Source: Candidatus Uhrbacteria bacterium
GTDB lineage: Bacteria; Patescibacteriota; Patescibacteriia; UBA9934; GWF2-40-263
Assembly (NCBI GenBank): GCA_026395055.1
Contig: JAPLZK010000002.1
Coordinates: 1-54,939, forward strand
Length of the DNA stretch: 54,939 nt
Reading direction: 5' to 3'
Shown: in pieces, positions 35,646 to 54,939 of the stretch
Position numbering within the stretch: the stretch's first letter is position 1
How the letters are laid out: each line of letters starts with the position of its first letter
The notes under the pieces: model-generated
What the model saw: only the letters and a program-made list of their open reading frames with translations
The model's database searches: none
Told to the model about the DNA's origin: nothing
Position numbers and translations under genes: made by a program

Positions 35646-35660
35646 GAAAAATTTTTGAAT

Positions 35661-35689
35661 AAAAAAATCGAGAACGTGAAGTTCTCGAT
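35661..35689 (-). terminator. intrinsic terminator closing the minus-strand envelope cluster
   Basis: Minus strand: ATCGAGAAC ttcac GTTCTCGAT TTTTTTT. Confidence 0.7.
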
Positions 35690-35696
35690 GAAGTGC

Positions 35697-39402: not shown

Positions 39403-39439
39403 TGCTGAATTTCAGTTCATCAGTCTTTCTGACGCGCTG

Positions 39440-39469
39440 AAAAAAAGAGCCAAGAGCGATTCTCTTGGC
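39440..39469 (-). terminator. hairpin + T-run after the SBP gene (internal attenuator/terminator)
   Basis: Minus strand: GCCAAGAG aatcg CTCTTGGC TCTTTTTTT. Confidence 0.55.
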
Positions 39470-39508
39470 AGAAGATTCTGAACCTTGCTTCGCGAGGCGA
39501 GGTGCAGA

Positions 39509-40726: not shown

Positions 40727-40886
40727 GTGCAGAACTCCCGTGTCTCAGTCGTAGACCGAAACGTCTGTAGGTTTAGGATCACGACCCGATCCTGGTAGGT
40801 TGGCCACTGTCTGCAGAAGGACATCTCCTGCGTCTAGTGCTGTGTGGGACATTCCCACGAGGCGAGTTCATATGATCTCGACTCGT

Positions 40887-40915
40887 GTAAAAGGGTGATT
40901 GACGAATCAATCACC
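40887..40915 (-). terminator. hairpin + T-run after the pspA-like gene
   Basis: Minus strand: GGTGATTGA ttcg TCAATCACC CTTTTAC. Confidence 0.55.
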
Positions 40916-40932
40916 AGAGGGAAACAAAGGAA

Positions 40933-41775: not shown

Positions 41776-41831
41776 AGAGGACTCCTGTGTGTCGAAGGTT
41801 ATTCGACGGTGGTTTGTCTGAGTTGTTCAAG

Positions 41832-42611
41832 TCAGACGGGCTTGTCCGAGGGGGTTTCCCTCAGATACTCGGCATCGCTCTCTGCGATACCGCTTCGGAG
41901 ACGATCCTCCGCACGCTCTGCAACACCGAACAAGGTGCGTATTTCGTCTAGATTCTGTTCCAGGGCTTTTCCACCCATGCTACTTGCCGTCAATCGCTTG
42001 GCAGCAAGTTCTTGTGCTCGGGCATACTGACTCCCGAGTTCTTGTAAGGCACGATCGACGTCATCGAGAAGGCGGTCCGCCGACTTTTTGACTTCGAGTT
42101 GTGCCGATCTTGGCATGCGAGAAGCAGATTGACGCATGTCAAAGGATTTTTCCAACCACTTGATTGCGTTTGCAAACAATCCTTCGATCTTGTTTGTGAT
42201 TTCCGCCACGATGACGTCATCCAATCCTTCTTTCCAGGACGCGTCATGCAGAAATGTCGCGCGGACATTCACAAGATCGTCATAGAGGTGTTCGTCACGT
42301 GTGTCATTGTCCGAAGCGAGTTTGTTGCGTAGCGAATCGAGTTTGCTCTGCTGAGCGTTCACGATTCCACTTCGAACTTTCTCTACTTCTGTTGTGATAA
42401 TTCCATCTCGCTTTACGATCCAGCGATACGAAAGTGTTCCGAGGCTTGTAAGCAAGCAAGCGATTCCTCCAAAGAGCCAGGCTCCCGGATTATCCGCAAG
42501 AAATGCTGCATAGCTGAACGGAATGGCGGATGCGCCAAGAGGAAAAAGTATGCTCCAATGTCCGAAGAGTTCCACTCGGACTTTTTGCTTCAACACATTC
42601 TCGTCGAGCAT
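41832..42611 (-). CDS. 2-TM membrane protein with cytoplasmic coiled-coil domain (PspA-adjacent)
   Basis: Two hydrophobic helices (WSILFPLGASAIPFSYAAF, WLFGGIACLLTSLGTL), then ~190 aa predicted helical. 56 nt upstream of pspA. Confidence 0.7.
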   Translation of the reverse strand: MLDENVLKQKVRVELFGHWSILFPLGASAIPFSYAAFLADNPGAWLFGGIACLLTSLGTLSYRWIVKRDGIITTEVEKVRSGIVNAQQSKLDSLRNKLASDNDTRDEHLYDDLVNVRATFLHDASWKEGLDDVIVAEITNKIEGLFANAIKWLEKSFDMRQSASRMPRSAQLEVKKSADRLLDDVDRALQELGSQYARAQELAAKRLTASSMGGKALEQNLDEIRTLFGVAERAEDRLRSGIAESDAEYLRETPSDKPV

Positions 42612-42621
42612 CCGAGCCCCC

Positions 42622-44169
42622 TTAGTAGGGTCGTTGGGAGAGTTGAAACGTCACGCTTTGTGCCGTACCACTCTGCGTTTGAGAAGGTTCCGCGCTCGTT
42701 TTCACACGCGCGACCGCAATGCCGTTTGAAATCAATTCATCCACCACACTCTTTGAGCGCGCTTTCGCGAGTTCAAGGTTTGCGGCAGGGTCGCCGTCGT
42801 TGCGAGCATGACCGATCACCGTGAGGTAATAGGTTGGCCAGGCCTTCAGACGATCCGCAACGTCTTTCACGTCGCGCGTTCCTTGGATTTCAATGTCTGC
42901 TTTGCCGCGAGCGAAACTGATCGCTCGAGCATCCATGTCGCCAACGGTGATGAGGGATTTCCACTCGTCGTCCGTAAGGGCAGGGAGATTTGCCACACCG
43001 CGTACGATTTCATCTTGGGCTTGGCCCGGATGAAAGTTCGCTTGCTGCATGGCGCGCAGTGTTCCGTCGTAGTACAGGTCTTGCTCGTGTCCATCCGTTG
43101 GATTGGACTTGAGCTTGCCCGTCTTCAGAAGAAACTGCGAGATACTTGCGATCATTTCGCGCATGGTCGGAAGTCCGTGGAGGTCGGCAGCGGACAGGAG
43201 CCCGAACTGCGCGTAGTTTTCCATCGTGTTCTTCCACTGAATCCCATTCGCGATTTTTTTCGCTTGTTCTTCCGTGAGGGTATCGCCATTCAATTTCGCG
43301 TCGTCCATCACAAGCTTTGTCATGCCGTTTGGTGCAACCTGGTAGGTGTGCAACGCACGGAAGTAAGCTTCCTCGACCGCACGCACCACAGTGGGTTGTT
43401 CGATCAAGAATTTGCGATTGACCGCGAGGACGTCGACGATGGCCCCGTTGACCTTCGACGTGTCGTAAATCTGAATGACGCCCGGAAGGGCAAGAGCTTT
43501 CGACAGCGCCGGTTCCCAAAGGACATACGCAGTCTTTGCATTCTTGTCTGCCTTCTTCAGTTGATCCAAAACATCGTCCGGACTCTTTGCGCTCACAAGC
43601 CAGTCTTGTGAACCGAGAGCGGGAAGCATGTTTGCAACCAGTTGTCGCGCAAGCGTTTCGCTTGGCGAGTCTCCGGTCGCAACAATCTTCGTCTGAGCGC
43701 GATTCAGTGCGGCTGCATTTTGAACGGCTTGCTTGTAAGCAACCATTCCGTCTGCGCCGTTTGAGTCATCGATGAGAAGAAAGATCGTGACGTCGGCAAG
43801 AGCACTCTCTGAAATACCAGCGACGATATCACTGTCGATCGTGAAGACAGCCATATTGAGATCGCCTTTTTTGAGCGCCTTCATCCGATTGCCATACATG
43901 TCCGTGTCGTCGGCGGCGGGAGCAATCACTTGCACCCCAATTTCTGAGCGACCCAGTTGGTCACGGAAATTCGGTGAGCGGAGGACGGCGTAGCCCGGGA
44001 ACGAATCCGCACCAATGCGAACATTGGTTTTGTAATTCGTTTGCGAGCTTGTCTGTGCGACGCGTGCTTCTTGGATTTTCGGAAGCAGCAATTTCTTGGC
44101 TGCGAATCCGAGTCCGAAGACAAGGCCGATCACGACGAACGTGAGAATGATCTTCTGTTTGTTTTCCAT
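42622..44169 (-). CDS. membrane-anchored solute-binding-domain / OmpA_C-like fusion protein
   Basis: N-terminal TM IILTFVVIGLVFGLGFAA, an NMT1-like PBP domain, and a C-terminal OmpA-like YYLTVIGHARNDGDPAANLELAKARSKSVVDELISNGI. Confidence 0.8.
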   Translation of the reverse strand: MENKQKIILTFVVIGLVFGLGFAAKKLLLPKIQEARVAQTSSQTNYKTNVRIGADSFPGYAVLRSPNFRDQLGRSEIGVQVIAPAADDTDMYGNRMKALKKGDLNMAVFTIDSDIVAGISESALADVTIFLLIDDSNGADGMVAYKQAVQNAAALNRAQTKIVATGDSPSETLARQLVANMLPALGSQDWLVSAKSPDDVLDQLKKADKNAKTAYVLWEPALSKALALPGVIQIYDTSKVNGAIVDVLAVNRKFLIEQPTVVRAVEEAYFRALHTYQVAPNGMTKLVMDDAKLNGDTLTEEQAKKIANGIQWKNTMENYAQFGLLSAADLHGLPTMREMIASISQFLLKTGKLKSNPTDGHEQDLYYDGTLRAMQQANFHPGQAQDEIVRGVANLPALTDDEWKSLITVGDMDARAISFARGKADIEIQGTRDVKDVADRLKAWPTYYLTVIGHARNDGDPAANLELAKARSKSVVDELISNGIAVARVKTSAEPSQTQSGTAQSVTFQLSQRPY

Positions 44170-44247
44170 TGCCTGCTTCCTCCTTGTTCGATTAAGGTTT
44201 ACTTTCGAACTTAGTCCACATCCGAGACATTCTTGGACATGAGCTAA

Positions 44248-44274
44248 GAGAAAAGGTCGTTTCAGAGAAACGAC
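44248..44274 (-). terminator. hairpin + T-run after the VWA gene
   Basis: Minus strand: GTCGTTT ctctg AAACGAC CTTTTCTC. Confidence 0.5.
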
Positions 44275-44286
44275 AGAGTCTAGTCT

Positions 44287-44320
44287 CCCTCGCCTTCACA
44301 AGGAGGGGGCTGGGGGGTGG
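44287..44320 (-). repeat. C-tract + GC hairpin 3'-UTR element, copy 1
   Basis: Plus strand CCCTCGCCTTCACAAGGAGGGGGCTGGGGGGTGG, abutting the VWA stop codon. Other copies at 47769-47806 and (inverted) 52891-52924. Confidence 0.8.
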
Positions 44321-45373
44321 TCAGTTTTGCACGCGCACCATCTGGCGGCGACGCACGGTGAGAAAACTCACGAGGCAAAGAGCGATGAGGCCCGTCGGAA
44401 CGGGATTGATCCCCGTAGGCGAAGCACTGCAACCTTTTTCCTTGCCTTGGTTCTGATCTGCAGGAGCTGCTTGATCCGTCGGAGCGTTTCCGTTCGGAGC
44501 GGCATTCTGTCCTGCGGGAGCATTCTTTTGCTCTGCAGCTTTCTTGGCGGCGTCGTATTCTTCTTTGGAAACGCCAATGGGCCAATAGCGCAGATCCATA
44601 TTGGTGACTTCCTTGAGCCAAGCATTTGCCACGTCGTCCGGCACTCCCTTCAGCAGATCGTAATCCACTTGGGCAGCGGCGGCATTGGTGGTTTCCACTT
44701 GGACGGCGGTCTTCAGGGCGCGGTCGAGCGCGATCGCATCATTCGCTTTCCAGTAACGGCGCGCGATGGTTGCGAGCGGATGCCTTTCCTCCATGCCGAC
44801 GCCGATGACATCGAGTTGAATGCCACTCGACATCACCTCGGGCGCGTACGCCTTCATCAGCTGATCTTCTTCTGCGGGCGTTGCAACACCGTCGGTCACG
44901 ACCAAGAGTTGGTACGTGCCACGATTGTGCTGTGCACTGCGAGCTTCGATCAATGCGTCCGCCGCTTTCTTGATGGAGGTTCCAAGAGGAGTTCCACCAC
45001 CGGGATTGATTTGATCGATCGCTGCCTTGATCTGATCTTTGTTCATGGGAGCGATCGGCGCGAGCCAATCGATCGTGATCTTGCGACCCCAGTCATCTCC
45101 AACGAACAGCAGAACGCCGACATGGGTGGTTTGTGGAATCTGATCGATCACGCTTTTCAGCGCGTTCTTTGCAACCGTGATTTTCCGATCATTGCTGCCA
45201 GGACTGATTGCATCCTTCATGGAACCGGAACCGTCAATCACGATCGCGATGCAATCGTGTGTGGCGGATTCAGCGGAGGTTGGAGGATTTCCTGCACCGT
45301 CGTACGGAAGCGCGAACGCATTCGTCGAGATGAACAGGGTCGTGAGAATCAGTGCGGTGTGAAGCGTCTTCAT
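44321..45373 (-). CDS. secreted von Willebrand factor type A (VWA) protein with C-terminal Cys + TM + RRR tail
   Basis: Signal peptide MKTLHTALILTTLFISTNAFA. MIDAS residues in IAIVIDGSGSM, GGGTPLGTS, LLVVTDG. C-terminus GCSASPTGINPVPTGLIALCLVSFLTVRRRQ. Confidence 0.85.
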   Translation of the reverse strand: MKTLHTALILTTLFISTNAFALPYDGAGNPPTSAESATHDCIAIVIDGSGSMKDAISPGSNDRKITVAKNALKSVIDQIPQTTHVGVLLFVGDDWGRKITIDWLAPIAPMNKDQIKAAIDQINPGGGTPLGTSIKKAADALIEARSAQHNRGTYQLLVVTDGVATPAEEDQLMKAYAPEVMSSGIQLDVIGVGMEERHPLATIARRYWKANDAIALDRALKTAVQVETTNAAAAQVDYDLLKGVPDDVANAWLKEVTNMDLRYWPIGVSKEEYDAAKKAAEQKNAPAGQNAAPNGNAPTDQAAPADQNQGKEKGCSASPTGINPVPTGLIALCLVSFLTVRRRQMVRVQN

Positions 45374-45387
45374 TTGTGCACCTCCTC

Positions 45388-47340
45388 TTACAGCTCGTAG
45401 TCGGAAGCGGTGGCAGCCTCGGCCGAAACTCGGACGATACTGAACTCCACACGACGATTCTTCGCAGCTTCTTCCGGAATCCGAGGCTTCACGATGAACG
45501 GGTCGCTCGCGCCAGCGCCGATCGGAGTGATCTGGCTCTCGTCGAGTTTCACACCCTTCTTTGCTGCATACGCAATGAGCGCACGGCTCACTTGCTTTGC
45601 ACGATCATACGAAAGTGCTGTCGCGGCTTCCGCAATGCGCGAGGGACTGTCCCCCTGCTTTGCGGCGTCCGTACTGTTGCGCGCTTCGTCGATGTTCGGA
45701 TTGGTCGCAAGAGCGAGGACTTGCTTCGCGTTCTTCAGGTCGAGCGGTTTCCCTTCGATCGAATAGGTGAAGTTGCCAGACGTTCCGGCTTGCTTCACGA
45801 GCCCTTTCTCCATGCCCTTCTTCAGGATCGTGGAGACAAGCAGCGTCGTGTCTGTGTGTCCGCGGATCACGATGGTCGCGCGGGAATACTTTGGTGCGAG
45901 CACCAGGACTTCGTCGAATTCCTTCTTGTAGTTGGTCTCGTCGAACTCGACCTGGTTCTCCGCAAAGTAGGCAACAAACGAGAGCATGGTGTTGCCACCG
46001 AGCGAGCCCGTTTGGTTCATCTGTTCCACTTCCGCTTGGGTTGCTTCTGTGTTGAAGTGCGCGGTGCGCTTCACGTTGCCCGAGAGCAGGTCCTTGAAGA
46101 TCGGATGTGTCCACTCGACGTTCGCACTTTGGATGTCGACACGCTTGGTGGCGTTGTCGAGTTCTGCTGCGAGATCGTTCGAGAGGTTGGAGAAGGACTT
46201 GTGACCGATGACAGACGTCGGATTGAAGAACTCCACGTTGCCGGCAAGGCCGACAAATGCTGCGTCCGACCAGAGGCCGTACGTTGCGGCTTCATCCGGA
46301 CACGTGTCCTTCCACGTCTGCATGGTGAATGCGAGCAGGCCACGGAACTCTTCCGAACCTTTCGCCTTGTTGTCGTAGTCGTGCTGGAGAGCCTTCACGG
46401 CTTCCACTGACTTCAGGAACGCCGCAGCGAACTTCACGACCGTATCATGATGCTCCACGTTGAACTTGTGGCTCACAAAGTACATGTCGGGAATGGACGT
46501 GCGCCGATCGATGGTGGAGACGAGCACGTGCGCGCCCTTCACCGTTCCTTCTGCGCCTGTGCCAACATGCGCCGCATCCGCGCCTGTGAGCGCGTCGCGG
46601 TCCGGACTGATCACGAATGCGCAATCAACTTCCGGATGCGCTTTGAAATATTCCGCGGGGCCGTCTTTTGCCGTCACGTCCTTCGTGAATTTGATCTTCA
46701 CGTTCTTCGAGGTCCGCTTGACGTCCTTCAGGATATCGATGAGGAAGCTCTCGTGCGGGCCGTCCTTCTGGAGAGCGACGGTCGCTGTGTCGAGGTCGCT
46801 GATGCTCTTGATTTTCTCGCGGCAGACCACGTGGTCGCCCATGGAGTACGTCAATTGCACAGCAGGTTCCGCACACAGATCCGCGTCCGGCGTCGGACAC
46901 AGTTCGCCGTCGAACTTGCCGATCATCGGATACGTGCCGCGCAGGAACGTGACCTTGCCCGCCTTGTAGTCGTCGATTTGTGCGCGAACGTTGTCGTTCG
47001 GGCTTTCGACGAATTCAATGCAGAGGCCGTACTGGTCGTAGATGCTACCAATACGTGTCTTCAGACCGCCGTTGCCATAGAAGGCAGCCATTTCGGCGCC
47101 CCAGATGATCATGCCAGCCTTCAGACATTCGCCTTTCTTTTCTTCACCACCCGGCAACTTTGCCTGGATGCCTGGGGCTGCGGGCGCCGCTTGCGCGGGA
47201 GCCTGTGCCTGAGGAGTGGCTTGTGCCGGCGCGCTTTGCGTCGTCGTGTTGCCGTTTTGATTCGGGACCTTCTTGCAGCCGCCGATGACACTCGCGAGCG
47301 CGAGCATCACAGCAAACAGAATCATGCGAGCGTTTCGCAT
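45388..47340 (-). CDS. lipoprotein with solute-binding-like domain fused to an OmpA_C-like domain
   Basis: Lipobox LASVIGGC, Ala/Pro/Gln linker, PBP-like region. C-terminal OmpA-like ATIVIRGHTDTT...LSYDRAKQVSRALIAY...NRRVEFSIVRV. Confidence 0.8.
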   Translation of the reverse strand: MRNARMILFAVMLALASVIGGCKKVPNQNGNTTTQSAPAQATPQAQAPAQAAPAAPGIQAKLPGGEEKKGECLKAGMIIWGAEMAAFYGNGGLKTRIGSIYDQYGLCIEFVESPNDNVRAQIDDYKAGKVTFLRGTYPMIGKFDGELCPTPDADLCAEPAVQLTYSMGDHVVCREKIKSISDLDTATVALQKDGPHESFLIDILKDVKRTSKNVKIKFTKDVTAKDGPAEYFKAHPEVDCAFVISPDRDALTGADAAHVGTGAEGTVKGAHVLVSTIDRRTSIPDMYFVSHKFNVEHHDTVVKFAAAFLKSVEAVKALQHDYDNKAKGSEEFRGLLAFTMQTWKDTCPDEAATYGLWSDAAFVGLAGNVEFFNPTSVIGHKSFSNLSNDLAAELDNATKRVDIQSANVEWTHPIFKDLLSGNVKRTAHFNTEATQAEVEQMNQTGSLGGNTMLSFVAYFAENQVEFDETNYKKEFDEVLVLAPKYSRATIVIRGHTDTTLLVSTILKKGMEKGLVKQAGTSGNFTYSIEGKPLDLKNAKQVLALATNPNIDEARNSTDAAKQGDSPSRIAEAATALSYDRAKQVSRALIAYAAKKGVKLDESQITPIGAGASDPFIVKPRIPEEAAKNRRVEFSIVRVSAEAATASDYEL

Positions 47341-47439
47341 TGGGACTCCTTCTCCTGTCGTTAATTGGAGAATACATCGTGACAGGCCGATGCACTCTTG
47401 TCCTCTAAAAGGAACGTTCGGAAAAATTCCGAAGTCAAG

Positions 47440-47468
47440 AACTTACCTCAAAATTCAATTTTTGTCAA
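47440..47468 (-). promoter_or_regulatory. sigma70-type promoter of the envelope cluster
   Basis: Minus strand: TTGACA (47468-47463), 17 nt, TAAGTT (47445-47440), about 100 nt upstream of ATG 47340. Confidence 0.55.
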
Positions 47469-47582
47469 GGATAATTCGCAGAATTCTGAATGAAACTTTT
47501 CTCAATCAAAAAAAGGGTGAAAAAGGGTTTTTGCTATGAGAAATAAAATGGTTTGTTATAACTAACTGACAAAAAAAGAAGC

Positions 47583-47684
47583 CTAGGATGGCTTCGAGGT
47601 TTTTGAGGGGGGAAGTGCACGAGCGCAAGCGATCGCAACAACCAAGATGATGATGAAAAAGTCACCGAGAAGTTCGTAGAGCAA
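47583..47684 (-). CDS. possible 33-aa hydrophobic peptide
   Basis: TTG 47684 preceded by AGGAGA + 4 nt. Peptide LLYELLGDFFIIILVVAIACARALPPSKTSKPS. The stop lies in the hairpin GAAGCC atccta GGCTTC + T7 (47571-47595). Below the ORF-track size cut-off. Confidence 0.25.
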   Translation of the reverse strand: MLYELLGDFFIIILVVAIACARALPPSKTSKPS

Positions 47685-47737
47685 GGTGTCTCCTGTTTGT
47701 TTGTCGGCGAAACTTAGCGTATGTCTGTAGATTTGGC

Positions 47738-47763
47738 AAACAAAAAACTCGCCCAAAGGCGAG
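47738..47763 (-). terminator. intrinsic terminator after rpsP
   Basis: Minus strand: CTCGCC tttg GGCGAG TTTTTTGTTT. Confidence 0.65.
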
Positions 47764-47768
47764 TATTT

Positions 47769-47806
47769 CCCCCCCCCTCCTTCACAAGGAGGGGGTTGGG
47801 GGGTGG
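47769..47806 (-). repeat. C-tract + GC hairpin 3'-UTR element, copy 2
   Basis: Plus strand CCCCCCCCCTCCTTCACAAGGAGGGGGTTGGGGGGTGG, 5 nt from the rpsP stop. Confidence 0.8.
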
Positions 47807-47811
47807 TCTTA

Positions 47812-48348
47812 TTACTCTGCTGCAGGTGCTTCTGGAGCTGGTTCTTCTGCAACAGGTGCAGCTTCTTCCGTAACGGGAGCTGGAGTTTCTGCTGCAGCTT
47901 TTGCTGTTGCTTTCTCAGCTTCTGCGGCTTCTTTTGCAGCGGCTGCTTCTGCCTTTGCGGCTTCTGCGGCTGCAGCTTTTGCTTCTTCTTCAGCTAATTT
48001 AGCTGCTTCTGCCTTCTTTTGTGCAGCTTCGTCTTTTGCTTTTTTGTCTGCGAGGTCTTTTTCCATGGTCGCTTTCTTGCGATCACTGATGTGAGACTTT
48101 GCAATTTTCTTTCCTTCTACGAATTTGTGGTCAAGGAAGATGTTCCAAACGGTTGGGGAACATTGTGCTCCTTTTTCAAGCCAATGCTTTACTTCTTCTG
48201 CGACGACAACCAATTCTTTTGAACGTGGGTTGTAGTGGCCAAGAATAGCTGTGGATTTTGCCCATGGATCACGTGTTTTTGGTTGAACAATAACGCGGTA
48301 AATTGGAGCTTTTTTCTTTCCAACGCGGGAAAGGCGAATGGTCAACAT
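47812..48348 (-). CDS. rpsP: 30S ribosomal protein S16 with ~90-aa Ala/Glu/Lys-rich C-terminal extension
   Basis: MLTIRLSRVGKKKAPIYRVIVQPKTRDPW..., then a low-complexity AEAAKLAEEEAKAAAAEAAK tail. Confidence 0.92.
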   Translation of the reverse strand: MLTIRLSRVGKKKAPIYRVIVQPKTRDPWAKSTAILGHYNPRSKELVVVAEEVKHWLEKGAQCSPTVWNIFLDHKFVEGKKIAKSHISDRKKATMEKDLADKKAKDEAAQKKAEAAKLAEEEAKAAAAEAAKAEAAAAKEAAEAEKATAKAAAETPAPVTEEAAPVAEEPAPEAPAAE

Positions 48349-48485
48349 AGGATATTTGAGTTCGAAGGTTAAAGTTGGTCAAAGAGAATGGGTAGATATT
48401 CCATCTCTGTGAGGTCTTAAGTCATTGTGAGAGCGATGACGATTCGTGAAGAGTAATAAATTTGGGCAGATTCGTCAATAGACGA

Positions 48486-48514
48486 TTGACGGGCGGCTTT
48501 TAAGTTGGTAGGCT
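48486..48514 (+). promoter_or_regulatory. possible promoter of 48554-48937
   Basis: TTGACG (48486-48491), 17 nt, TAGGCT (48509-48514). Confidence 0.4.
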
Positions 48515-48553
48515 CATTTCTCGATTTTCCTTCGAGAATGTGGAGGTAGATAG

Positions 48554-48937
48554 ATGTTGTCTTTGTTCTTTCTCTTTTTTTCCGTCGTTTTGACATGGGT
48601 TACCAAAGAAGGCTTCCGAATCTGGTGGATGTGTCTGTTTGTCGCACTTGCTGTGCATGAATGTGATACACATCCAGATCCCTTGATCAGTACTGCGGAA
48701 GATGGTCGGTCGGCCTATGTGAAAGGGTTCGAGATCTGCCAAAAAGCGGATTTTCCGGACGTAATCGTTCTGAAACACTACTTTCCGAAAGATGGACACA
48801 TCGATTTCATGTATTATTGTGTAGATTCACAAGGGGGATTGCACATTTCTCCGGACGCTGTGTCAAAGCCGGTCAGTTCGACGCAAAATGTGACCCAAAC
48901 CCCGCTTCCGCCGGCTTCAACCCCTGTTTCTCCGTAA
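48554..48937 (+). CDS. hypothetical membrane/exported protein (127 aa)
   Basis: ORF track. GGAGG 7 nt upstream. N-terminal hydrophobic segments. Terminator follows. Confidence 0.6.
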   Translation: MLSLFFLFFSVVLTWVTKEGFRIWWMCLFVALAVHECDTHPDPLISTAEDGRSAYVKGFEICQKADFPDVIVLKHYFPKDGHIDFMYYCVDSQGGLHISPDAVSKPVSSTQNVTQTPLPPASTPVSP

Positions 48938-48945
48938 TCGACTCA

Positions 48946-48975
48946 AAGACACCCCTGGTGTCTTTTTTCTTTTTC
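48946..48975 (+). terminator. intrinsic terminator
   Basis: AGACACC cct GGTGTCT TTTTTCTTTTT. Confidence 0.65.
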
Positions 48976-49007
48976 GCTTATTTTAGCCAATTTAGTTCGC
49001 TTAGGGC

Positions 49008-49036
49008 TTGACAAAAAGGCCAAAAAGTGGTATATT
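49008..49036 (+). promoter_or_regulatory. near-consensus sigma70 promoter heading the small-gene array
   Basis: TTGACA (49008-49013), 17 nt, TATATT (49031-49036). Confidence 0.6.
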
Positions 49037-49141
49037 GTGGAGGTTAAGATCATTAAAACTTTGGGGAGAGAGCTGTGCTATCCAGTCCCAGGATCCGATA
49101 GCAAATTCAAGGTATTGCCCATTTTTGGCGCAATACTCTTT

Positions 49142-49201
49142 GAGAACCAATGTTTGAGTATTTCTCTCGTTTGAAATAAGCAATCATTGGTTCTTTTTGT
49201 T
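49142..49201 (+). terminator. large-loop terminator-like hairpin in the array leader
   Basis: GAGAACCAATG (32-nt loop containing TTCTCTC) CATTGGTTC TTTTTGTT. The loop is complementary to GGAGAGAG at 49065-49072. Confidence 0.45.
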
Positions 49202-49259
49202 AGATGGTTAGAAAACACGTGCGCTCGGCGTATGACGCGGAGCAACAAGGTAAAAGACA

Positions 49260-49583
49260 ATGTCGAACAAAAACCTGGTTCCTGTGTGGTATGTGGAATA
49301 CACCATGCAAATGGTGCGGCACTTCTGCAAGAAGTACGAATGTCCGGAGCGGGATCTCCAGTCGTGCACAACGGCGATTACGATCGCCTTGCGGGAACAA
49401 GACGACTTTGAATGGACGCCGTGTGTCAAAGGGTTCCGGCGGATCCTGTTCATCAAGCCCCAGATCCGCGAGGAGAAACGCGTGGTCGCCCTGGTCTTCG
49501 GCTACGACAATTTGGATCAGACGCTCACGAACGAGCTGAACGAATCCATTCGTCGTGCCTGCGACAACAAGTGGGCTGACTAA
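49260..49583 (+). CDS. hypothetical protein (107 aa)
   Basis: ORF track. Weak AAGG upstream. GC-rich. Confidence 0.6.
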   Translation: MSNKNLVPVWYVEYTMQMVRHFCKKYECPERDLQSCTTAITIALREQDDFEWTPCVKGFRRILFIKPQIREEKRVVALVFGYDNLDQTLTNELNESIRRACDNKWAD

Positions 49584-49600
49584 ACATCTTCATATCTCTA

Positions 49601-49687
49601 TTAGCTTCGCGCGAATGAGAGTTTGCTCTTTGAAAACCGTCTTGCCCTGTTTGCTTCACAAACAGGGACTCGACTTCGAACATCACT
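49601..49687 (+). repeat. intergenic module family 1, copy 1
   Basis: TTAGCTTCGCGCGAATGAGAGTTTGCTCTTTGAAAAC ... CCCTGTTTG cttca CAAACAGGG ACTCGACTTCGAACATCACT. Confidence 0.8.
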
Positions 49688-49763
49688 CTGCGGCAGTCAA
49701 AGAGTGGTGCGCGATGAGAGCAAAAATCGCTCGGCGTTTACGCGGAGCATCTGGAGACTGTTC

Positions 49764-50078
49764 ATGTCCAAGTCGCAAATCCTCGGTTTCATCGGTTCCT
49801 GTCTCCTCATCATCGCGGCCTACGTGGTGAGCGGGTTGTTCTACACGAAGACGGACTCCTGGTTCGTCCACGACTACGTCGTCCTCTACGTCGGCGCGGC
49901 AACGCTGCTTGCCATGTGGAGCCTGCGCAACGTGAACACCACGTGGCAGTTCGGCCGCTTCAACGTGAGCAGCTTCGCCACGTGTCACGTGTTCCTGTGG
50001 TCGATGCACGCGGTCGTGTTCGTCACGTACCTCAAGCTCGTGATCTCCCCGAACAACCCCATTTACACCGGCTGCTAA
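49764..50078 (+). CDS. hypothetical multi-TM membrane protein (104 aa)
   Basis: ATG 49764 after GGAG, within ORF 49623-50078. The ORF-track start lies inside the intergenic module. Confidence 0.6.
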   Translation: MSKSQILGFIGSCLLIIAAYVVSGLFYTKTDSWFVHDYVVLYVGAATLLAMWSLRNVNTTWQFGRFNVSSFATCHVFLWSMHAVVFVTYLKLVISPNNPIYTGC

Positions 50079-50099
50079 CAGCCTGGAGGACACATCATA

Positions 50100-50210
50100 A
50101 TGCGTAATCTGTTTCGCGGTTTGATCGGACTTGCACTCGTTGTCGGCTTCTTGCATTACCTGCACGTTGCCTACGGCGTGAGCTATACGCCGATCCCGTT
50201 TCTGCCTTAG
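50100..50210 (+). CDS. possible 36-aa membrane peptide
   Basis: GGAGG 9 nt upstream. MRNLFRGLIGLALVVGFLHYLHVAYGVSYTPIPFLP. Below the ORF-track cut-off. Confidence 0.4.
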   Translation: MRNLFRGLIGLALVVGFLHYLHVAYGVSYTPIPFLP

Positions 50211-50302
50211 AGCTTCGCGCTCAACGGTTCGCTCTTTCTCATCTGCTCGACGGGTCCGGAATGTATTCCCGACCCGTCGAGTGCCTGACTTCGAACATCA
50301 CT
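50207..50302 (+). repeat. intergenic module family 1, copy 2 (diverged)
   Basis: TTAGAGCTTCGCGC...GCTCTTT... CTCGACGGGTC (loop) GACCCGTCGAG ...GACTTCGAACATCACT. Confidence 0.65.
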
Positions 50303-50389
50303 TGCAAGGTTGCAGTGTGGTGAACGATGAGGGTGATATGAGTTCCTAACAAAAAATGCCCGCGCAATGCGTCGGCTGCAGGAGTTCCT

Positions 50390-50755
50390 TTGAAGATCAA
50401 TTACGCTCTGGTGCAGGTTCGTAGCTTCATCTTGTTGGCTCTGGTTTGCATCGTCACGATGTGTACCGTGTTCATGGTCAACATTGTGGGGCAGCGCGAG
50501 CTTCGTGAACAGACCATGTTTGCCAGTGTGGAATCGCCGGCCACGTGTCCGATGGATCGCTTTCCGCAGACGTCGGCCGAACGCGTTGCGTGCCTTGAGA
50601 AGAATATGACCGCGCTCTACCTGCAAAGCATCCGCCAGGAAAGGGACATCTACACGCTTGCCAAAGACATGCTCAATCGTGCAGACGATGATTCCGAAGC
50701 GGATGTTCCGAATGAGGAACAGAGCATCGACGAGAAGAATGTCTGCGAGCAGTAG
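50390..50755 (+). CDS. hypothetical signal-anchor protein (121 aa), TTG start
   Basis: ORF track. AGGAG 6 nt upstream. N-terminal TM FILLALVCIVTMCTVFMV. Confidence 0.6.
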   Translation: MKINYALVQVRSFILLALVCIVTMCTVFMVNIVGQRELREQTMFASVESPATCPMDRFPQTSAERVACLEKNMTALYLQSIRQERDIYTLAKDMLNRADDDSEADVPNEEQSIDEKNVCEQ

Positions 50756-50765
50756 TCTTTCTCAC

Positions 50766-50856
50766 TTAGCCTCGCGCGAATGAGAGAATCGCTCTTTGAA
50801 AACAAAGGTCTACCCGCAACTGCTTCACAGCTGCGGGACTCGACTCTGATGATTAC
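50766..50856 (+). repeat. intergenic module family 1, copy 3
   Basis: TTAGCCTCGCGCGAATGAGAGAATCGCTCTTTGAAAAC ... CCCGCAACTG cttca CAGCTGCGGG ACTCGACTCTGATGATTAC. Confidence 0.8.
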
Positions 50857-50955
50857 GTCACGTCTCTCGTGAACGTCGTCGTTAGACTGAGTCTGGTTTC
50901 TCTGGAGTTTCTACACAACAAGATCGGCACGTTCCGATCGGAGGTTTATTCCATC

Positions 50956-52335
50956 ATGAAGTACACGATTCCGTTCCTGGTGTTCGCCATCCTCCTCGCC
51001 GCGTGCGAGACGACGAATGTGTACCCGACCAAGGTGGTTGAGGTGCAGCAGACGTCGAGTGCTCCCGTGGTCGAGACCAAGGTGGTTGAAGTGAAGACGA
51101 AGATCGACTGCGCGTTGATCGATCCGTCGTTCGTGCCGCAGGGTGACAACAACTGCGTCTCGATCTGCGTCGCGTGCCTGAACGGCGGCGGCCAGTGCCT
51201 CGACACGAACAAGAATGGATACGGCGACACATGTGTGACGTCGTTGCCCTCGAGCGAAACGCCTGTCGATGCGCCGCCACAAGCGACGCCGGCAGAATCG
51301 CCCGCGGTTCCGTTCTGCATGGACTATGACAACGACGGGTACGTCAATTGTGACGGCTCGTGTCTGGTTCCGTCGAATCAGCTGTGCGGCGACTGTAGCA
51401 ATTTTGACCCGACGGTTCACCCCGGCGCGGAAGAGATCTGCGACAACGTCGACCAGAACTGCGATGGCAACACGGATCTGGATCTGATGACGGTCTACCG
51501 CGAGGACAAGGACAGTGATGGGTTCGGTGACGCGTTCAGTAAGATTACTCTTGCATGCAAAACGCCGGCCGGATTCGCGAGCGGACAGTTGGATTGCAAC
51601 GACGCGGACGCTTCGGTTCACCCCGGCGCGGACGAGGTGTGCAGCGACAACATCGACAACAACTGCAATCAGCAGGTCGACGAGTTGCCGTGCGTGACGT
51701 ACGAAGAGTTGTGCGGTGACAGCATCGACAACAACAAGAACGGCAAGACGGATGAAGACTGCGACTGCTCGTATGTGAATACCGGCAAGTCGGCGTCGAA
51801 TCTGCTCTATGCGAATTGGTGCAATAAGTGCACGGCGGAGTGCAAGCTTCTGCCGGACATCGACGTCACGAAGGACAGCTACAAGCTCGTGCTCGTGTGG
51901 GGCGACAAGGCCGATGCGAATTGGCCCTACATGAACACATTCAAGTACAAGCAGGAAACCGAGCCCGGCCTCTCTGGTATTGGTTACACCACGACGCAAA
52001 CGTGGGACTCCTGGTCGGGTGTCGATTTCTACAAGGGTACGTTCGTCGCGATCGATCTCGATCCTGCTGTGAAGTACATTCGGTTCAACGAAATGCAGTA
52101 CCCGGGCACCTGGGAAATCTGCAATGCCGCCAAGGTGACGGACACCTTCGTGGATTTCAACGCCCTCAACTTGCCGATGATCTACGTCGTCAAAAATGGC
52201 GTGTGGGAAAACGTCACGTCCAAGGTCGGCATGCAAGTCGCTCTCGATGTCGTGAGCGGCGGCAAGACCCCGAAGTCGGGAAGCCCCTCTGGCTACCCCG
52301 TGCCGAATTACTGCTCGGCGTACATCACGTTCTAG
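50956..52335 (+). CDS. lipoprotein with Cys/Asp-rich MopE-like (putative metal-binding) repeats and a beta-rich C-terminal domain
   Basis: Lipobox ILLAAC. Repeats such as DCSNFDPTVHPGAEEICDNVDQNCDGNTD and DCNDADASVHPGADEVCSDNIDNNCNQQVDE. ATG 50956 after GGAGG, within ORF 50869-52335. Confidence 0.75.
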   Translation: MKYTIPFLVFAILLAACETTNVYPTKVVEVQQTSSAPVVETKVVEVKTKIDCALIDPSFVPQGDNNCVSICVACLNGGGQCLDTNKNGYGDTCVTSLPSSETPVDAPPQATPAESPAVPFCMDYDNDGYVNCDGSCLVPSNQLCGDCSNFDPTVHPGAEEICDNVDQNCDGNTDLDLMTVYREDKDSDGFGDAFSKITLACKTPAGFASGQLDCNDADASVHPGADEVCSDNIDNNCNQQVDELPCVTYEELCGDSIDNNKNGKTDEDCDCSYVNTGKSASNLLYANWCNKCTAECKLLPDIDVTKDSYKLVLVWGDKADANWPYMNTFKYKQETEPGLSGIGYTTTQTWDSWSGVDFYKGTFVAIDLDPAVKYIRFNEMQYPGTWEICNAAKVTDTFVDFNALNLPMIYVVKNGVWENVTSKVGMQVALDVVSGGKTPKSGSPSGYPVPNYCSAYITF

Positions 52336-52351
52336 TCCGCTCTTTCACTCG

Positions 52352-52435
52352 CTCAATCAACTCTCGGAAGTTCCGAAGTTGATTGAGTCTTTTCCAGAGA
52401 TCCGCATCGAAAGGCGATGGAGAGATCTGAGAAAG
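52352..52435 (+). repeat. intergenic module family 2, copy a
   Basis: CTCAATCAAC tctcggaagttccgaa GTTGATTGAG TCTTTTCCAGAGATCCGCATCGAAAGGCGATGGAGAGATCTGAGAAAG. Confidence 0.85.
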
Positions 52436-52487
52436 CTCATTGGTCAGTTCCGTAACATGATCGGCACGTTCCGATCGGAGGCATCAA

Positions 52488-52778
52488 ATGAACAAGAAGG
52501 AAATCCAGGTAGTCGTTGCGTCGATCGTCTGCTTTCTCGAGGCCATGGGCTGTCGCGCGCTCTCGCTCGAAGAGTACGTCAGTCTCACGTTCGATCTCGC
52601 CACGGGCAAGGAGTTCTTCCACTACAGGGCATTCGATCGCTTCACCGAGCTCAACCTCAAGGTCGGCCGCGAATCGTTTGCAATCGTGAACGTCCGTGAC
52701 GTGTGCGATGTGTACATGACGAAATGGTTGAACAACCAGCTCACGATGCGTCTTGCGGCGGCGGCTACCGCGGCGTAG
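52488..52778 (+). CDS. hypothetical protein (96 aa)
   Basis: ORF track. GGAGG 8 nt upstream. Confidence 0.6.
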   Translation: MNKKEIQVVVASIVCFLEAMGCRALSLEEYVSLTFDLATGKEFFHYRAFDRFTELNLKVGRESFAIVNVRDVCDVYMTKWLNNQLTMRLAAAATAA

Positions 52779-52801
52779 GTTTGTCCTTTTTCTTCCACTC
52801 G

Positions 52802-52882
52802 CTTAATCATCTCTCGGAAGTTCCGAAGTTGATTGAGCCTTTTTCAGAGATCGCAAGCGTGTGCTTGTAGGATCTGAGAAAG
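52802..52882 (+). repeat. intergenic module family 2, copy b
   Basis: CTTAATCATC tctcggaagttccgaa GTTGATTGAG CCTTTTTCAGAGATCGCAAGCGTGTGCTTGTAGGATCTGAGAAAG. The inner helix is replaced and the outer helix is kept. Confidence 0.85.
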
Positions 52883-52890
52883 TGGTGAGA

Positions 52891-52924
52891 CCACCCCCTA
52901 ACCCCCTCCTTGTGAAGGCGGGGG
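52891..52924 (+). repeat. C-tract + GC hairpin 3'-UTR element, copy 3 (plus orientation)
   Basis: CCACCCCCTAACCCCCTCCTTGTGAAGGCGGGGG, which is the reverse complement of the 44287 and 47769 copies. Confidence 0.8.
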
Positions 52925-52969
52925 AATAATGAGCTTGCTCCGCCGTGGCGGGGTCGCAAGGAGAGTCAG

Positions 52970-53338
52970 ATGATTCAGCACAAGAATTCGTTGAGTGACA
53001 AGGCGATGCTTGCAGCGTTCGAGACCCTCGTCGCACGAGAACTCGTGACGCGGCAGGAATTGCTGCGGTGGAATTGCGATGCGCAGCTCAACGCACGCAA
53101 GACGCTCTTCACGATCGTGTTCAAGAATCGTGGCAACTCGCGGCGCATCGAATGCGAAGTGCCGGCGACGCTCGACACGCTTCCGGACGGCGGTGTGAAA
53201 ATCTCCGTCGAGATCCTGATGATCATGGCGGGCGCGACCAAGAAGGTTCCGGAAAGTCCGTGGACCGACGTCCTCTTCAACGCAGACAAGCCCCGCACCG
53301 TCCAAATGCGAACCGTGCTTCGTCGGCGCGCGGCGTAA
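52970..53338 (+). CDS. hypothetical protein (122 aa)
   Basis: ORF track. AAGGAGAG 5 nt upstream. Confidence 0.6.
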   Translation: MIQHKNSLSDKAMLAAFETLVARELVTRQELLRWNCDAQLNARKTLFTIVFKNRGNSRRIECEVPATLDTLPDGGVKISVEILMIMAGATKKVPESPWTDVLFNADKPRTVQMRTVLRRRAA

Positions 53339-53369
53339 TTCCTCGATAAGACAACATCCGGAGGAAACG

Positions 53370-53498
53370 ATGATTCGAAAGGTGATTCTGTTCCTGTCAT
53401 TTCTGGTGTTGGCGCTGAAAGTTTATGACGCCAACAAGGACATGAAGATGGAGATTTCGGATGAGCAACTGCATCAAATTCTCCTGAGGGCTCAGTAG
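53370..53498 (+). CDS. possible 42-aa signal-anchor peptide
   Basis: GGAGG 6 nt upstream. MIRKVILFLSFLVLALKVYDANKDMKMEISDEQLHQILLRAQ. Below the ORF-track cut-off. Confidence 0.45.
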   Translation: MIRKVILFLSFLVLALKVYDANKDMKMEISDEQLHQILLRAQ

Positions 53499-53518
53499 CT
53501 AACGTTCTTTCTAAACTC

Positions 53519-53639
53519 GTTCGATCAACACCTAGATCTCCCAGAAGTTGATCGAACCTGCCTCGACCTGTTTACCAAAACAGCGTCGGGGCCTTTTCCA
53601 GAGATCCGCATCGATAGGCGATGGAGAGATCTGCAAAAG
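53519..53639 (+). repeat. intergenic module family 2, copy c (with extra hairpin)
   Basis: GTTCGATCAAC ...GTTGATCGAAC, extra CGACCTGTTT acc AAAACAGCGTCG, then CCTTTTCCAGAGATCCGCATCGATAGGCGATGGAGAGATCTGCAAAAG. Confidence 0.85.
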
Positions 53640-53658
53640 TTCAAACGGAGGTAGTGAC

Positions 53659-53967
53659 ATGTTCACTCAAGAAGAAATCGCGGCGATCTGCGCCGAGTTC
53701 GAAGAAATCTGTCGCGGTTCGGGCGCGTTCTGGAGCATGGTCCGCGAGGATATGCAAAGGTATGAAGCGTCCATCGAACTCGACAACGATGGTTTCCGCA
53801 TCAGGGTGAATGGCGAGATCATGTTCGAAATGCTCTATTACGAACAGTCGTATCACTTTTTCCGCTGGATTCACGAGTCGAACAGCATGGTGCGACGAAG
53901 CGAGTTGCAAAAGGCCATCGAGATTTATGATCGCGTCGTCGGCAAGTTGCTCGGCGTTGCGGCGTAG
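53659..53967 (+). CDS. hypothetical protein (102 aa)
   Basis: ATG 53659 after GGAGG, within ORF 53548-53967. The ORF-track start lies inside the module. Confidence 0.6.
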   Translation: MFTQEEIAAICAEFEEICRGSGAFWSMVREDMQRYEASIELDNDGFRIRVNGEIMFEMLYYEQSYHFFRWIHESNSMVRRSELQKAIEIYDRVVGKLLGVAA

Positions 53968-54024
53968 ATCAATCGTTCAACAACAAAGCAGCCCACGATT
54001 GAGTTCGTCGGCAAGGAGAAGGTG

Positions 54025-54279
54025 ATGTCCAAAAACGTACGGCCGATCTCACTCGGAGAGTTGCAGCAGGAATCGCGCAAGAACATCGAACGCGAAGCGG
54101 CGACCAAGATGGGTCAGGTCGATCCAGATGACTTGAGCCCGCAGGAATACTTGAACGTGATCCACGAAGGCGAAAGCGATCAAGTCATCCCGGCAACAGG
54201 CGATGATGATCTCGATCTGCTGGAAGCCGCGGCTCAGCAATGCGATCGCAACGTCGGCGAATACGACAATCGTTGGTGA
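54025..54279 (+). CDS. hypothetical acidic protein (84 aa)
   Basis: AAGGAGAAGG upstream. ORF track 54022-54279. Confidence 0.6.
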   Translation: MSKNVRPISLGELQQESRKNIEREAATKMGQVDPDDLSPQEYLNVIHEGESDQVIPATGDDDLDLLEAAAQQCDRNVGEYDNRW

Positions 54280-54303
54280 TGCACCCGTTCCTTCCCTTAA
54301 CCT

Positions 54304-54389
54304 GTTCGACCTGCTCTCGGAAACTCCGTGAGTGCGTCGAACCTTTTCCAGAGATCCCGATCGAAAGGCGATGGAGAGATCTGTGAAAG
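54304..54389 (+). repeat. intergenic module family 2, copy d
   Basis: GTTCGAC ctgctctcggaaactccgtgagtgc GTCGAAC CTTTTCCAGAGATCCCGATCGAAAGGCGATGGAGAGATCTGTGAAAG. Confidence 0.85.
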
Positions 54390-54422
54390 TGTATGTAACC
54401 ACCCGCGTGAATTTGCGTCGGT

Positions 54423-54719
54423 ATGGAGTGTGAGAGGATGAAGTGTTTCAAGTATTATTACAATTCAGGTCTGATCTTGTTGATCGGAGTGATCATCACT
54501 TGCGCAACGCATGGTTTTTCCAGAACACCAAGTGTAGGGCTGCGTTGTGTGTTGTTCTGGCTCCAGATCGGTATTCCCGGTCTGTTGTTCGCCAAGGATA
54601 TCCTGATCGTAAAGCGAAGGATATCCCCGGAGCAAGTCACGAAGTTCTCCAAGTTCATCTTGATCCCCACGCAAATCATTGGACTCATTGTTTTGGTGGT
54701 GATGTACCAATCGATCTGA
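54423..54719 (+). CDS. hypothetical multi-TM membrane protein (93-98 aa)
   Basis: ORF track. Alternative start ATG 54438 after GAGAGG. Confidence 0.55.
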   Translation: MECERMKCFKYYYNSGLILLIGVIITCATHGFSRTPSVGLRCVLFWLQIGIPGLLFAKDILIVKRRISPEQVTKFSKFILIPTQIIGLIVLVVMYQSI

Positions 54720-54772
54720 TCTTTCCTCGCATAGTGCGGGACAAGAATTGAAAACATCAACAAGGTGAAGTT

Positions 54773-54939
54773 GTGACAAATCGTGAAATTGTGGAATTGG
54801 TGATCTATCTTCAATCGTGCCGTCAGAGTTTTGGGACGTATGAAGCCACATCGATAGAGATCGCAGAATTGGCTCTGAACCTGAAGGACGGCAATACAGT
54901 GGAGCAGCGGGTGAGGTTGTCCAATCCTCCCGCGATGTA
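54773..54939 (+). CDS. possible hypothetical protein, 5' part only (runs off window end)
   Basis: Frame open from GTG 54773 (weak AAGGTG upstream) to the window end: VTNREIVELVIYLQSCRQSFGTYEATSIEIAELALNLKDGNTVEQRVRLSNPPAM... Confidence 0.3.
   Translation, partial: MTNREIVELVIYLQSCRQSFGTYEATSIEIAELALNLKDGNTVEQRVRLSNPPAM

Follow-up and report, generated by a model that had tools for sequence, protein, structure and literature searches.

The closest described counterparts of the gene array reported here are the sedentary chromosomal integrons, in which the bottom strand of the attC site is the recombined one, and the attC-site clusters that lack an integrase (CALIN). Further terms of comparison belong to general knowledge: the RNase III sites of phage T7, the hairpins of repetitive extragenic palindromic (REP) sequences and bacterial interspersed mosaic elements (BIME), and the vsp, vlp and vsa loci of Mycoplasma. 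Bacteria of the candidate phyla radiation (CPR), or Patescibacteria, have tiny genomes with few recognisable mobile elements, and their host-interaction biology is largely unknown. According to the study from which the definitions of integron and CALIN were taken, CALINs without a nearby intI are common, and genomes of the small size class to which the CPR host belongs were reported to be without integrons (PMC4889954). The array lies at positions 49008-54939 of a 54,939-nt stretch of DNA from Candidatus Uhrbacteria (contig JAPLZK010000002.1), hereafter called the window, whose numbering is used for all ORF and module coordinates. Behind one strong, near-consensus promoter, 12 co-directional plus-strand open reading frames (ORFs) of 36-459 aa are punctuated by conserved hairpin modules.

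The region is read here as the head of a hypervariable, lineage-specific cassette operon of Uhrbacteria-like CPR, of which it contains the first 12 genes; the transcribed hairpin modules of this operon would punctuate the mRNA and serve as homology patches, and a probability of about 0.55 is attached to this reading. The array has a cassette-array organisation with a new, strongly covarying junction element outside Rfam. Nothing comparable is described in the lineage, and no account of cassette arrays in CPR or Uhrbacteria came up in a literature search. The preliminary description of this DNA, made from the sequence alone, had suggested a cassette-like hotspot in which small accessory genes are swapped, a processed polycistron or a set of secreted and membrane proteins; the hotspot proposal is supported by gene turnover, by module-bounded indels and by the coding signal of the ORFs.

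Hairpin modules between the genes

Seven of the 11 gaps between the ORFs, numbered g1 to g12, hold a conserved module, as had been noticed in the preliminary description. Module A is present in three copies, behind g1, g3 (a partial copy) and g4, and module B in four, behind g5, g6, g8 and g10, all on the plus strand. The long repeat patterns of the modules have a chance expectation of 0.00-0.03, and the remaining 49 kb of the window contained no copy of either module. In module B, with which most units close, a T/C-rich stretch directly behind the stop codon is followed by hairpin 1, by four T and by hairpin 2. The first copy (52341-52438) comprises hairpin 1 at 52351-52388, the T4 run and hairpin 2 at 52387-52438, with a hairpin of the following 5' untranslated region (UTR) at 52459-52481. 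In the second copy (52791-52885), hairpin 1 occupies 52801-52838 and hairpin 2, at 52837-52885, has a different but compensated upper stem. The third (53500-53642) carries tandem hairpin-1 units (53519-53557 and 53560-53592) ahead of hairpin 2 (53591-53642), and in the fourth (54290-54392) the two hairpins are located at 54304-54342 and 54341-54392.

Hairpin 2 can be written as CTTTTCCAGAGATC, a variable stem-loop and GATCTGNGAAAG. It begins with the T run and combines an invariant basal stem of 9 bp (CUUUUCCAGA...UCUGNGAAAG) and a conserved internal loop with an upper stem of 5-9 bp, which differs among copies and covaries freely. In an alignment of 23 copies, 97.0% of the cells are paired, both sides have changed in six of the six upper-stem pairs, and the observed covariation score is reached by none of 500 shuffles. 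A covariance model made from this alignment was applied to the window and to 13 loci (160 kb of loci), where it found 61 copies, 50 of them distinct, from at least eight genomes. Among the 50 distinct copies, 96.9% of the cells are paired in the true register as against 25-46% in slid controls, double changes affect eight pairs, two of which belong to the basal stem, and the covariation score is 0.403 as compared with 0.136 in shuffles. On the sense strand, G.U-type pairs number 32 and A.C-type pairs 6 (p = 2e-5), an excess which indicates that the fold is selected on this strand, as expected of a transcript or of top-strand single-stranded DNA. Every copy is found inside an array and on the sense strand only, with scores of 33-74 bits against at most 19 bits for the antisense strand, and the model gave no match in the ~90 kb of DNA flanking the arrays. 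The modules are confined to the arrays and are therefore not generic terminators, an explanation for which the preliminary description had left room. Three loci, L003, L009 and L011, are chance matches to the search pattern (28-32 bits, without array context).

The array was also compared with Rfam 15, in which no family reached its gathering score and permissive thresholds gave only two chance-level matches (E = 2.4 and 3.9). The coding of a peptide by hairpin 2 was considered and rejected, since the copy lengths (43-48 nt) differ by non-multiples of three and the upper stems covary. Examined by eye, the tandem G.A/A.G adjoining the basal stem is in keeping with a K-turn, but the 2-3 extra nucleotides on the non-bulged strand of the internal loop do not.

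Hairpin 1 is very stable and varies in sequence with its pairing kept, several sequence classes of it being joined to the same hairpin 2. In all plus-strand loci checked, to which this count is restricted (the minus-strand loci L001, L004 and L007 are excluded), a stable hairpin 1 of -14 to -29 kcal/mol stands directly before hairpin 2 and ends 1-2 nt ahead of the T run. In module B, whose hairpin had been called terminator-like, the tail amounts to 4 T only, and the terminator scan made no call on hairpin 1.

Module A is built differently. Its first copy (49584-49763) consists of a GCTTCGCGCGAATGAGAG box, a variable hairpin and a GACTTCGAACATCAC..GTGGTG hairpin; the second, partial copy (50211-50389) of a long hairpin (50246-50281), the GACTTCGAACATCAC box and a hairpin close to the Shine-Dalgarno (SD) sequence (50358-50377); and the third (50756-50955) is continued by the lipoprotein 5'UTR hairpin GATCGGCACGTTCCGATCGGAGG (50922-50944). 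A UTR of ~200 nt orthologous to this third interval precedes the lipoprotein gene of another Candidatus Uhrbacteria contig, MGEI01000005.1 (RIF), and a further contig, L020, starts with the tail of module A and the GATCGGCACGTTCCGATCGGAGG UTR hairpin ahead of a lipoprotein. Beyond A and B, a third and shorter junction type, C (53968-54024), contains a conserved 5'UTR with a small SD-adjacent hairpin, GCCYGCG..CGYYGGC..GGAG, and has related junctions in the arrays CAY (described below), L014 and L020.

The next SD often follows hairpin 2 at a distance of just 10-20 nt, and the modules showed no sigma-70-like hexamers. Judged by predicted promoters, the ORFs of the array are promoterless cassettes read from the single upstream promoter. 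As a separate observation, small hairpins of two families, GCCYGCG-loop-CGYYGGC-(A)GGAG and GATCGGCACGTTCCGATCGGAGG, adjoin the SD. Copies are found at 50358-50377, 50922-50944 and 52459-52481 of the window, at 1810, 2696 and 5918 of L014 and at 8662 and 10383 of L017; in several genomes, and without exception in the sense orientation, these hairpins recur ahead of unrelated genes.

Gene turnover at a fixed chromosomal slot

A strict hairpin-2 pattern was scanned against one genome per species for 185,579 species (GTDB species representatives). It matched RIF, in whose genome only the array is recognised, CAY and one chance sequence, and nothing else. CAY is contig CAYHDY010000009.1 of a metagenome-assembled genome labelled Gammaproteobacteria and holds the loci L001 and L004; given its CPR-type rpsP and its array synteny, this contig is probably mis-binned or mislabelled and of Uhrbacteria-like origin. 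A scan of metagenomes yielded further array fragments. The look-up of the g7 protein led to an identical Logan contig of 1467 nt, and a g7 profile search followed by look-ups of the encoding contigs gave the arrays L014, L015, L017/L018/L019, L020, L021 and L022.

Wherever one end of an array can be seen, the arrays of related CPR genomes occupy a single, common chromosomal slot. RIF, CAY, L015, L017 and L021 have rpsP, encoded on the opposite strand, at the head of the array, and the array tail is followed by a convergent smc and then by a DHH phosphoesterase gene in RIF, L015 and L017. The window genes upstream of the array (OmpA, VWA, a 650-aa protein and rpsP) match those of L015 and L017. 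The size of the array within this slot ranges from ~3.5 kb and 9 genes in L015 to ~7 kb and 13-15 genes in RIF and L017, and exceeds 9.6 kb in CAY. In RIF the array ends with a strong hairpin and a T8 terminator, and a similar hairpin with a T run is found behind the last genes in L014 and L017. The flanks consist of housekeeping genes, with no phage or plasmid context; the hairpin-2 pattern had no match in viral contigs, and module B (junction IG5) had no blastn match in phage or plasmid collections.

Gene content within this slot turns over fast, and cassette-sized indels begin and end at hairpin-2 repeats. Genomes whose ribosomal protein S16 core is 85-87% identical share few array families with the window, and the positions and the order of these families are changed; the invariant gene set that would have spoken against a swapping hotspot is therefore not observed. 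The g7 family is the most widespread, followed by the g5-type lipoprotein, and many genes were seen once.

Two indels are bounded by modules, as the hotspot proposal had anticipated. The first distinguishes L018 from L017, two strains that are 96-99% identical over their aligned blocks. L018 has 505 nt more, comprising a 5'UTR, a 120-aa ORF with a lipobox-like N-terminus (LMAC), and a hairpin 1 and hairpin 2 of its own; the N runs at 2076-2175 and 4707-4806 of L018 are not counted as indels. The insert is placed exactly behind a hairpin 2, so that near-identical 54-nt copies of hairpin 2 are found on both sides of it, whereas L017 has one copy. The second indel concerns g6. The order in L014 is lipoprotein, module B and g7, to which the window adds, between module B and g7, a cassette made of a UTR hairpin, g6, hairpin 1 and hairpin 2, extending from after hairpin 2 of module B copy 1 through hairpin 2 of copy 2. 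The L014 junction is a hybrid, its hairpin 1 resembling that of the window junction IG5 (98% over 58 nt) and the sequence behind its hairpin 2 resembling IG6. In L022, a g6 homolog (60% identical) is found in a different context, behind a probable g11 homolog.

Between genomes, homology is kept in blocks that run as far as the final base of hairpin 2 and no further. The modules reach an identity of up to 93% between genomes as compared with 71% for rpsP DNA, and they are also better kept than the array proteins. The modularity of the array is nevertheless imperfect, as gene content differs too at short junctions without module B, for instance behind g7, and at the L022 g6 junction hairpin 2 was lost imprecisely.

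A duplication was also noticed on the minus strand of the CAY locus L004, where ~190 nt at 5840-5650 and 4890-4700 are, by eye, apparently exact copies. The duplicated segment contains module B, 5'UTR hairpins and a signal peptide. Its presence before two different lipoprotein genes suggests a recent duplication or gene conversion.

Array genes, promoter and neighbouring DNA

All 12 ORFs announced by the preliminary description as a co-directional array of at least 12 small genes were recovered, and for each of the 12 its own frame scored best of six with a codon table trained on neighbouring genes. Their GC content at third codon positions is 0.58-0.91, as against 0.16-0.42 at second positions. 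The ratio of nonsynonymous to synonymous substitution rates (dN/dS) is 0.17-0.71 for the array genes common to relatives, a range that denotes purifying, if relaxed, selection; together with the codon signal, this removes the doubt that the ORFs might not be coding. An SD sequence had been ascribed to nearly all of them. It is clear and of the GGAG type in 10 of the 12, weak in g1 (AAGG) and not obvious in g11.

The array opens with g1 (49260-49583, 107 aa), for which no homolog was found, and g2 (49764-50078), a 104-aa membrane protein with a CAY homolog of 45% identity. They are followed by g3 (50100-50210), a hydrophobic peptide of 36 aa, and by g4 (50390-50755), a 121-aa protein of signal-anchor type with a CAY homolog of 35% identity. 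The lipoprotein g5 (50956-52335, 459 aa) has Cys-rich MopE-type repeats and belongs to a family, F2, represented in most arrays. It is the only one of the 12 ORFs with a Pfam match (Cu-binding_MopE, E = 4e-20), just as it had been the only product recognised beforehand. Next come g6 (52488-52778, 96 aa), the cassette missing in L014, and g7 (52970-53338, 122 aa), which as family F1 is the most widely shared array gene, present in nine arrays or fragments. The remainder comprises g8 (53370-53498), a membrane peptide of 42 aa; g9 (53659-53967), an acidic protein of 102 aa and cytosolic type; g10 (54025-54279), an acidic protein of 84 aa whose CAY homolog stands directly behind g7; and g11 (54423-54719), a 98-aa membrane protein with three hydrophobic segments, whose probable L022 homolog was recognised by eye and not by alignment. 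The last gene, g12 (54773-54939), is cut off by the end of the window, and the array indeed continues beyond it, as had been foreseen.

The distribution of these proteins is very narrow. Only 13 matches to the g7 family were found among 1.84 billion representative proteins, and the search with g6 gave one homolog. The AlphaFold model of g7 (pLDDT, the predicted local distance difference test, of 81) has no better fold match in the PDB than E = 0.35 and gives no functional lead. Over all loci, 50 of the 101 array proteins have a hydrophobic segment and 12 a lipobox-like signal, with a median length of 108 aa, in agreement with the mixture of predicted locations described beforehand. As half of the cargo would be membrane, secreted or lipoprotein, the array probably constitutes a variable repertoire of the cell envelope and of interactions at the cell surface.

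The array promoter (49008-49036) reads TTGACA-17-TGGTATATT, that is TTGACA-17-TATATT, with a TG extension of the -10 element, and the promoter scan credits it with 11 of 12 consensus positions. The promoter reported in the preliminary description is thereby confirmed, and it opens, identical down to its spacer, the homologous arrays of four further genomes (RIF, CAY, L015 and L017). The structured leader of ~160 nt described behind it is present in the window (49043-49205), with a 5' domain, GGGGAGAGAGCUGYGCUAUCCAGUCCC, and then a terminator-like hairpin of 22 bp (49143-49194) with its T run. It is kept in only three of the five genomes in which the array head is visible, namely the window, RIF and CAY, where the T tract numbers 5-7 T, and is absent from L015 and L017. 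It looks like an attenuator, a riboswitch or a small-RNA gene, and a comparison with Rfam gave no match. A potential pairing was noticed between the 5' domain and UUUCUCUC, a sequence in the apical part of the terminator-like hairpin.

Several features next to the array are recorded here in their own right. A 127-aa ORF with its own terminator (48945-48965) is located at 48554-48937 on the plus strand, between rpsP and the array promoter. As L017 has its homolog in the corresponding position, the ORF is a conserved gene of its own, outside the array. A 32-nt element, GTCATTGTGAGAGCGATGACGAT.CG.GAAGA, at 48421-48452, upstream of rpsP and before the next plus-strand ORF, is kept in the window, L015 and L017 and may be a ribosomal-protein leader or operator. 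The S16 protein itself (47812-48348, minus strand) has a tail of ~85 aa rich in Ala, Glu and Lys, with a similar tail in RIF and CAY. Further upstream, the 16S rRNA gene (31519-33009) is followed by no 23S gene in the remaining 22 kb of the window, unlinked rRNA genes being typical of CPR bacteria. About 2 kb of ORFs without Pfam match (33190-35279 region) separate it from tRNA-Ile.

The composition of the window changes stepwise, from a GC content of ~44-47% in a translation and replication block (1-35000) to 50-60% in an envelope block (OmpA, VWA and ABC) with the array (35000-54939). The tetranucleotide GATC is ~3-fold above expectation in the array (49000-54939), equally in coding and intergenic parts, and 1.3-2.2-fold in other parts of the window, and GATC or CGATCG builds many of the array stems. 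A Dam-type switch was considered for this clustering and not retained.

Recombination, punctuation and known systems

In the reading preferred here, the modules would work at the level of the transcript. A leaky terminator or a protective 3' end would be formed by hairpin 1 and its short U tract, a conserved factor would bind or process hairpin 2, whose shape (9-bp base, internal loop and 5-9-bp top) is compatible, as far as the fold goes, with an RNase III-type site, and the SD-proximal hairpins would tune translation. Direct repeats of 50-110 nt, common to related genomes and repeated inside each of them, the modules would in addition provide homology patches. Between these patches, ordinary recombination by RecA/RuvC, possibly with DNA acquired from relatives, would delete, duplicate, insert and reshuffle units made of 5'UTR, ORF and module. 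RecA, RuvC, SSB and FtsK are all encoded in the window. The presence there of RecA, RuvC and SSB, with no recombinase, is counted for homologous rather than site-specific recombination, as are the variation at junctions without module B and the imprecise L022 junction.

Some observations weigh against this reading. Clean module-bounded indels are limited to two, one of which comes from a scaffold with N gaps elsewhere, and the crossover points are mapped to the interior of hairpin 2 and no finer. In L017, module B stands between the promoter and the first ORF, a position odd for a 3'-end element and reminiscent of attI; since the module precedes the first ORF, any termination at the modules has to be leaky. 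Sequence conservation at the base of hairpin 2 goes far beyond the needs of pairing; this fits a specific protein partner, which could equally be a recombinase that acts on top-strand DNA in its folded form. What the modules would do by way of termination, processing or protein binding is itself inferred throughout.

A dedicated capture system of non-integron type is considered possible but unlikely. Here a recombinase encoded elsewhere in the genome would use single-stranded DNA folded into hairpin 2 as its recombination site, and would excise cassettes of ORF and module and insert them behind the fixed promoter. Such a system would account for indels that start and stop at hairpin-2 repeats and for sites present in one orientation and in arrays only, and the invariant, bulged basal stem with its free upper stem reproduces the design of a folded attC. 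The single upstream promoter followed by cassettes without sigma-70-type promoters, the attI-like module of L017, and modules that outlast both rpsP DNA and array proteins between genomes suit it as well. However, no recombinase or transposase was recognised by Pfam among the large ORFs of the 55-kb window, nor beside the three complete arrays RIF, L015 and L017, the classes concerned being tyrosine and serine recombinases, HUH enzymes and transposases, and the rest of each genome not having been searched. Content also shifts at junctions without module B, the L022 junction is decayed and imprecise, the selection of the sense (top) strand is transcript-like, and RecA-type recombination between 50-nt repeats accounts for the same indels.

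The opposite simplification, to which a still smaller chance is given, retains expression punctuation only. The modules would be leaky terminators, stabilisers, or processing and translational hairpins, gene turnover would be unrelated to them, and indels would end in modules because these occupy the greater part of the intergenic space. The sense-strand G.U bias, the fixed position of the modules between stop codon and next SD, the further UTR hairpins adjoining the SD and the fast evolution of the array proteins in any case are all consistent with it. It does not explain why a hairpin-2 copy is found at both ends of both indels with a single hybrid copy in the shorter allele, a configuration that is the mark of recombination between repeats and not of random deletion, nor why the homology between genomes comes in blocks that stop with the final base of hairpin 2.

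It is very improbable that the modules are selfish repeats, comparable to REP sequences, Correia elements or miniature inverted-repeat transposable elements (MITE), which settled in the intergenic regions of the operon. They are indeed short, hairpin-forming, repeated and intergenic, and several hairpin-1 classes are joined to one hairpin 2. But no copy exists outside the arrays in the ~90 kb of flanks, the strict scan of the RIF genome being array-only as well, all copies have the same orientation, and they are kept at the same operon although the S16 core is just 63-87% identical. No REP-associated tyrosine transposase (RAYT) or IS200-type transposase was found in the window or in the array flanks, whole genomes not having been searched, and an unsystematic reading of the junctions revealed neither terminal inverted repeats nor target duplications. 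A true integron remnant of the CALIN kind is barely credible, since co-directional ORFs without sigma-70-type promoters of their own and with a hairpin site behind each would suit it, but the R'' (RYYYAAC) and R' (GTTRRRY) boxes are missing at every junction, which excludes integron and CALIN alike (the only box pair 50-150 nt apart in the array falls inside the g6 coding sequence, with 0.9 expected from shuffles), the junction site is bipartite, its structure is selected on the top strand and no intI or pseudo-intI is found nearby. An integron proper was rejected on the missing attC boxes, on the strand of the fold and on the lack of any integrase found.

With the cassette operon as the preferred reading, the locus shows a dedicated, fast-turnover expression array at a fixed site in CPR, with a cargo of small membrane, secreted and lipoprotein products of very narrow distribution. 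Should recombination be homologous and take place between functional RNA punctuation elements, a simple model would be at hand for how cassette arrays arise. If hairpin 2 had instead an enzyme of its own, a new recombination system would be represented, and the arrays would be an independent, non-integron invention of a promoter with exchangeable hairpin-tagged cassettes in ultra-small CPR, varying their surface and host-interaction repertoire. In a variant of that capture machinery, the site would act at the RNA level and cassettes would pass through an RNA intermediate, which, if true, would be relevant to a question still unsolved, namely how terminator-like attC sites are gained by integron cassettes. 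In practical terms, the hairpin-2 model is a marker by which arrays can be located and strain-level variation tracked in groundwater metagenomes.

Among known systems, the modules share with Correia elements, MITEs and REPINs (paired REP sequences) the form of hairpin-forming, co-transcribed intergenic repeats of ~100 nt, from which they differ by being not dispersed and by their single orientation, and in that no terminal inverted repeats, target duplications or, in the window and the array flanks, associated transposase were seen. Conserved sense hairpins repeated between cistrons, with a stable 3' hairpin for each ORF, are likewise a feature of the RNase III sites in the T7 early operon and of REP/BIME in E. 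coli operons, and the T7 sites also have a lower stem, an internal loop and an upper stem. The present modules, for which cleavage and stabilisation are putative roles, are confined to one operon, whereas REP elements are dispersed genome-wide, and the T7 sites have no link to gene turnover. The vsp, vlp and vsa loci of Mycoplasma belong, as here, to a reduced-genome, host-associated bacterium and vary by recombination. Their tandem co-directional lipoprotein genes, with conserved 5'UTR and signal peptide and divergent mature parts, recall the F2 family and the CAY duplication. Most cassettes of the present array, however, are not lipoproteins, one promoter serves the whole array, and no invertible promoter, site-specific invertase or simple-repeat phase switch was seen.

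The likeness to sedentary chromosomal integrons and CALINs, such as the Vibrio superintegron with its Vibrio cholerae repeats (VCR), is one of organisation and stops at the parts. No IntI was found and the array has no R''/L''/L'/R' attC boxes; the junction is made of two hairpins with a T run between them, its structure is selected on the sense strand, and array content also varies at junctions without a site. Nevertheless, both are long arrays of short, co-directional, promoterless ORFs of mostly unknown function, placed behind one upstream promoter at a fixed chromosomal location. In both, each unit is closed by an imperfect hairpin that is conserved at its base and variable at its top, the sites within one array resemble each other, and cassettes are present or absent between strains. 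The logic of the integron is thus reproduced in this locus with parts that are not those of an integron.

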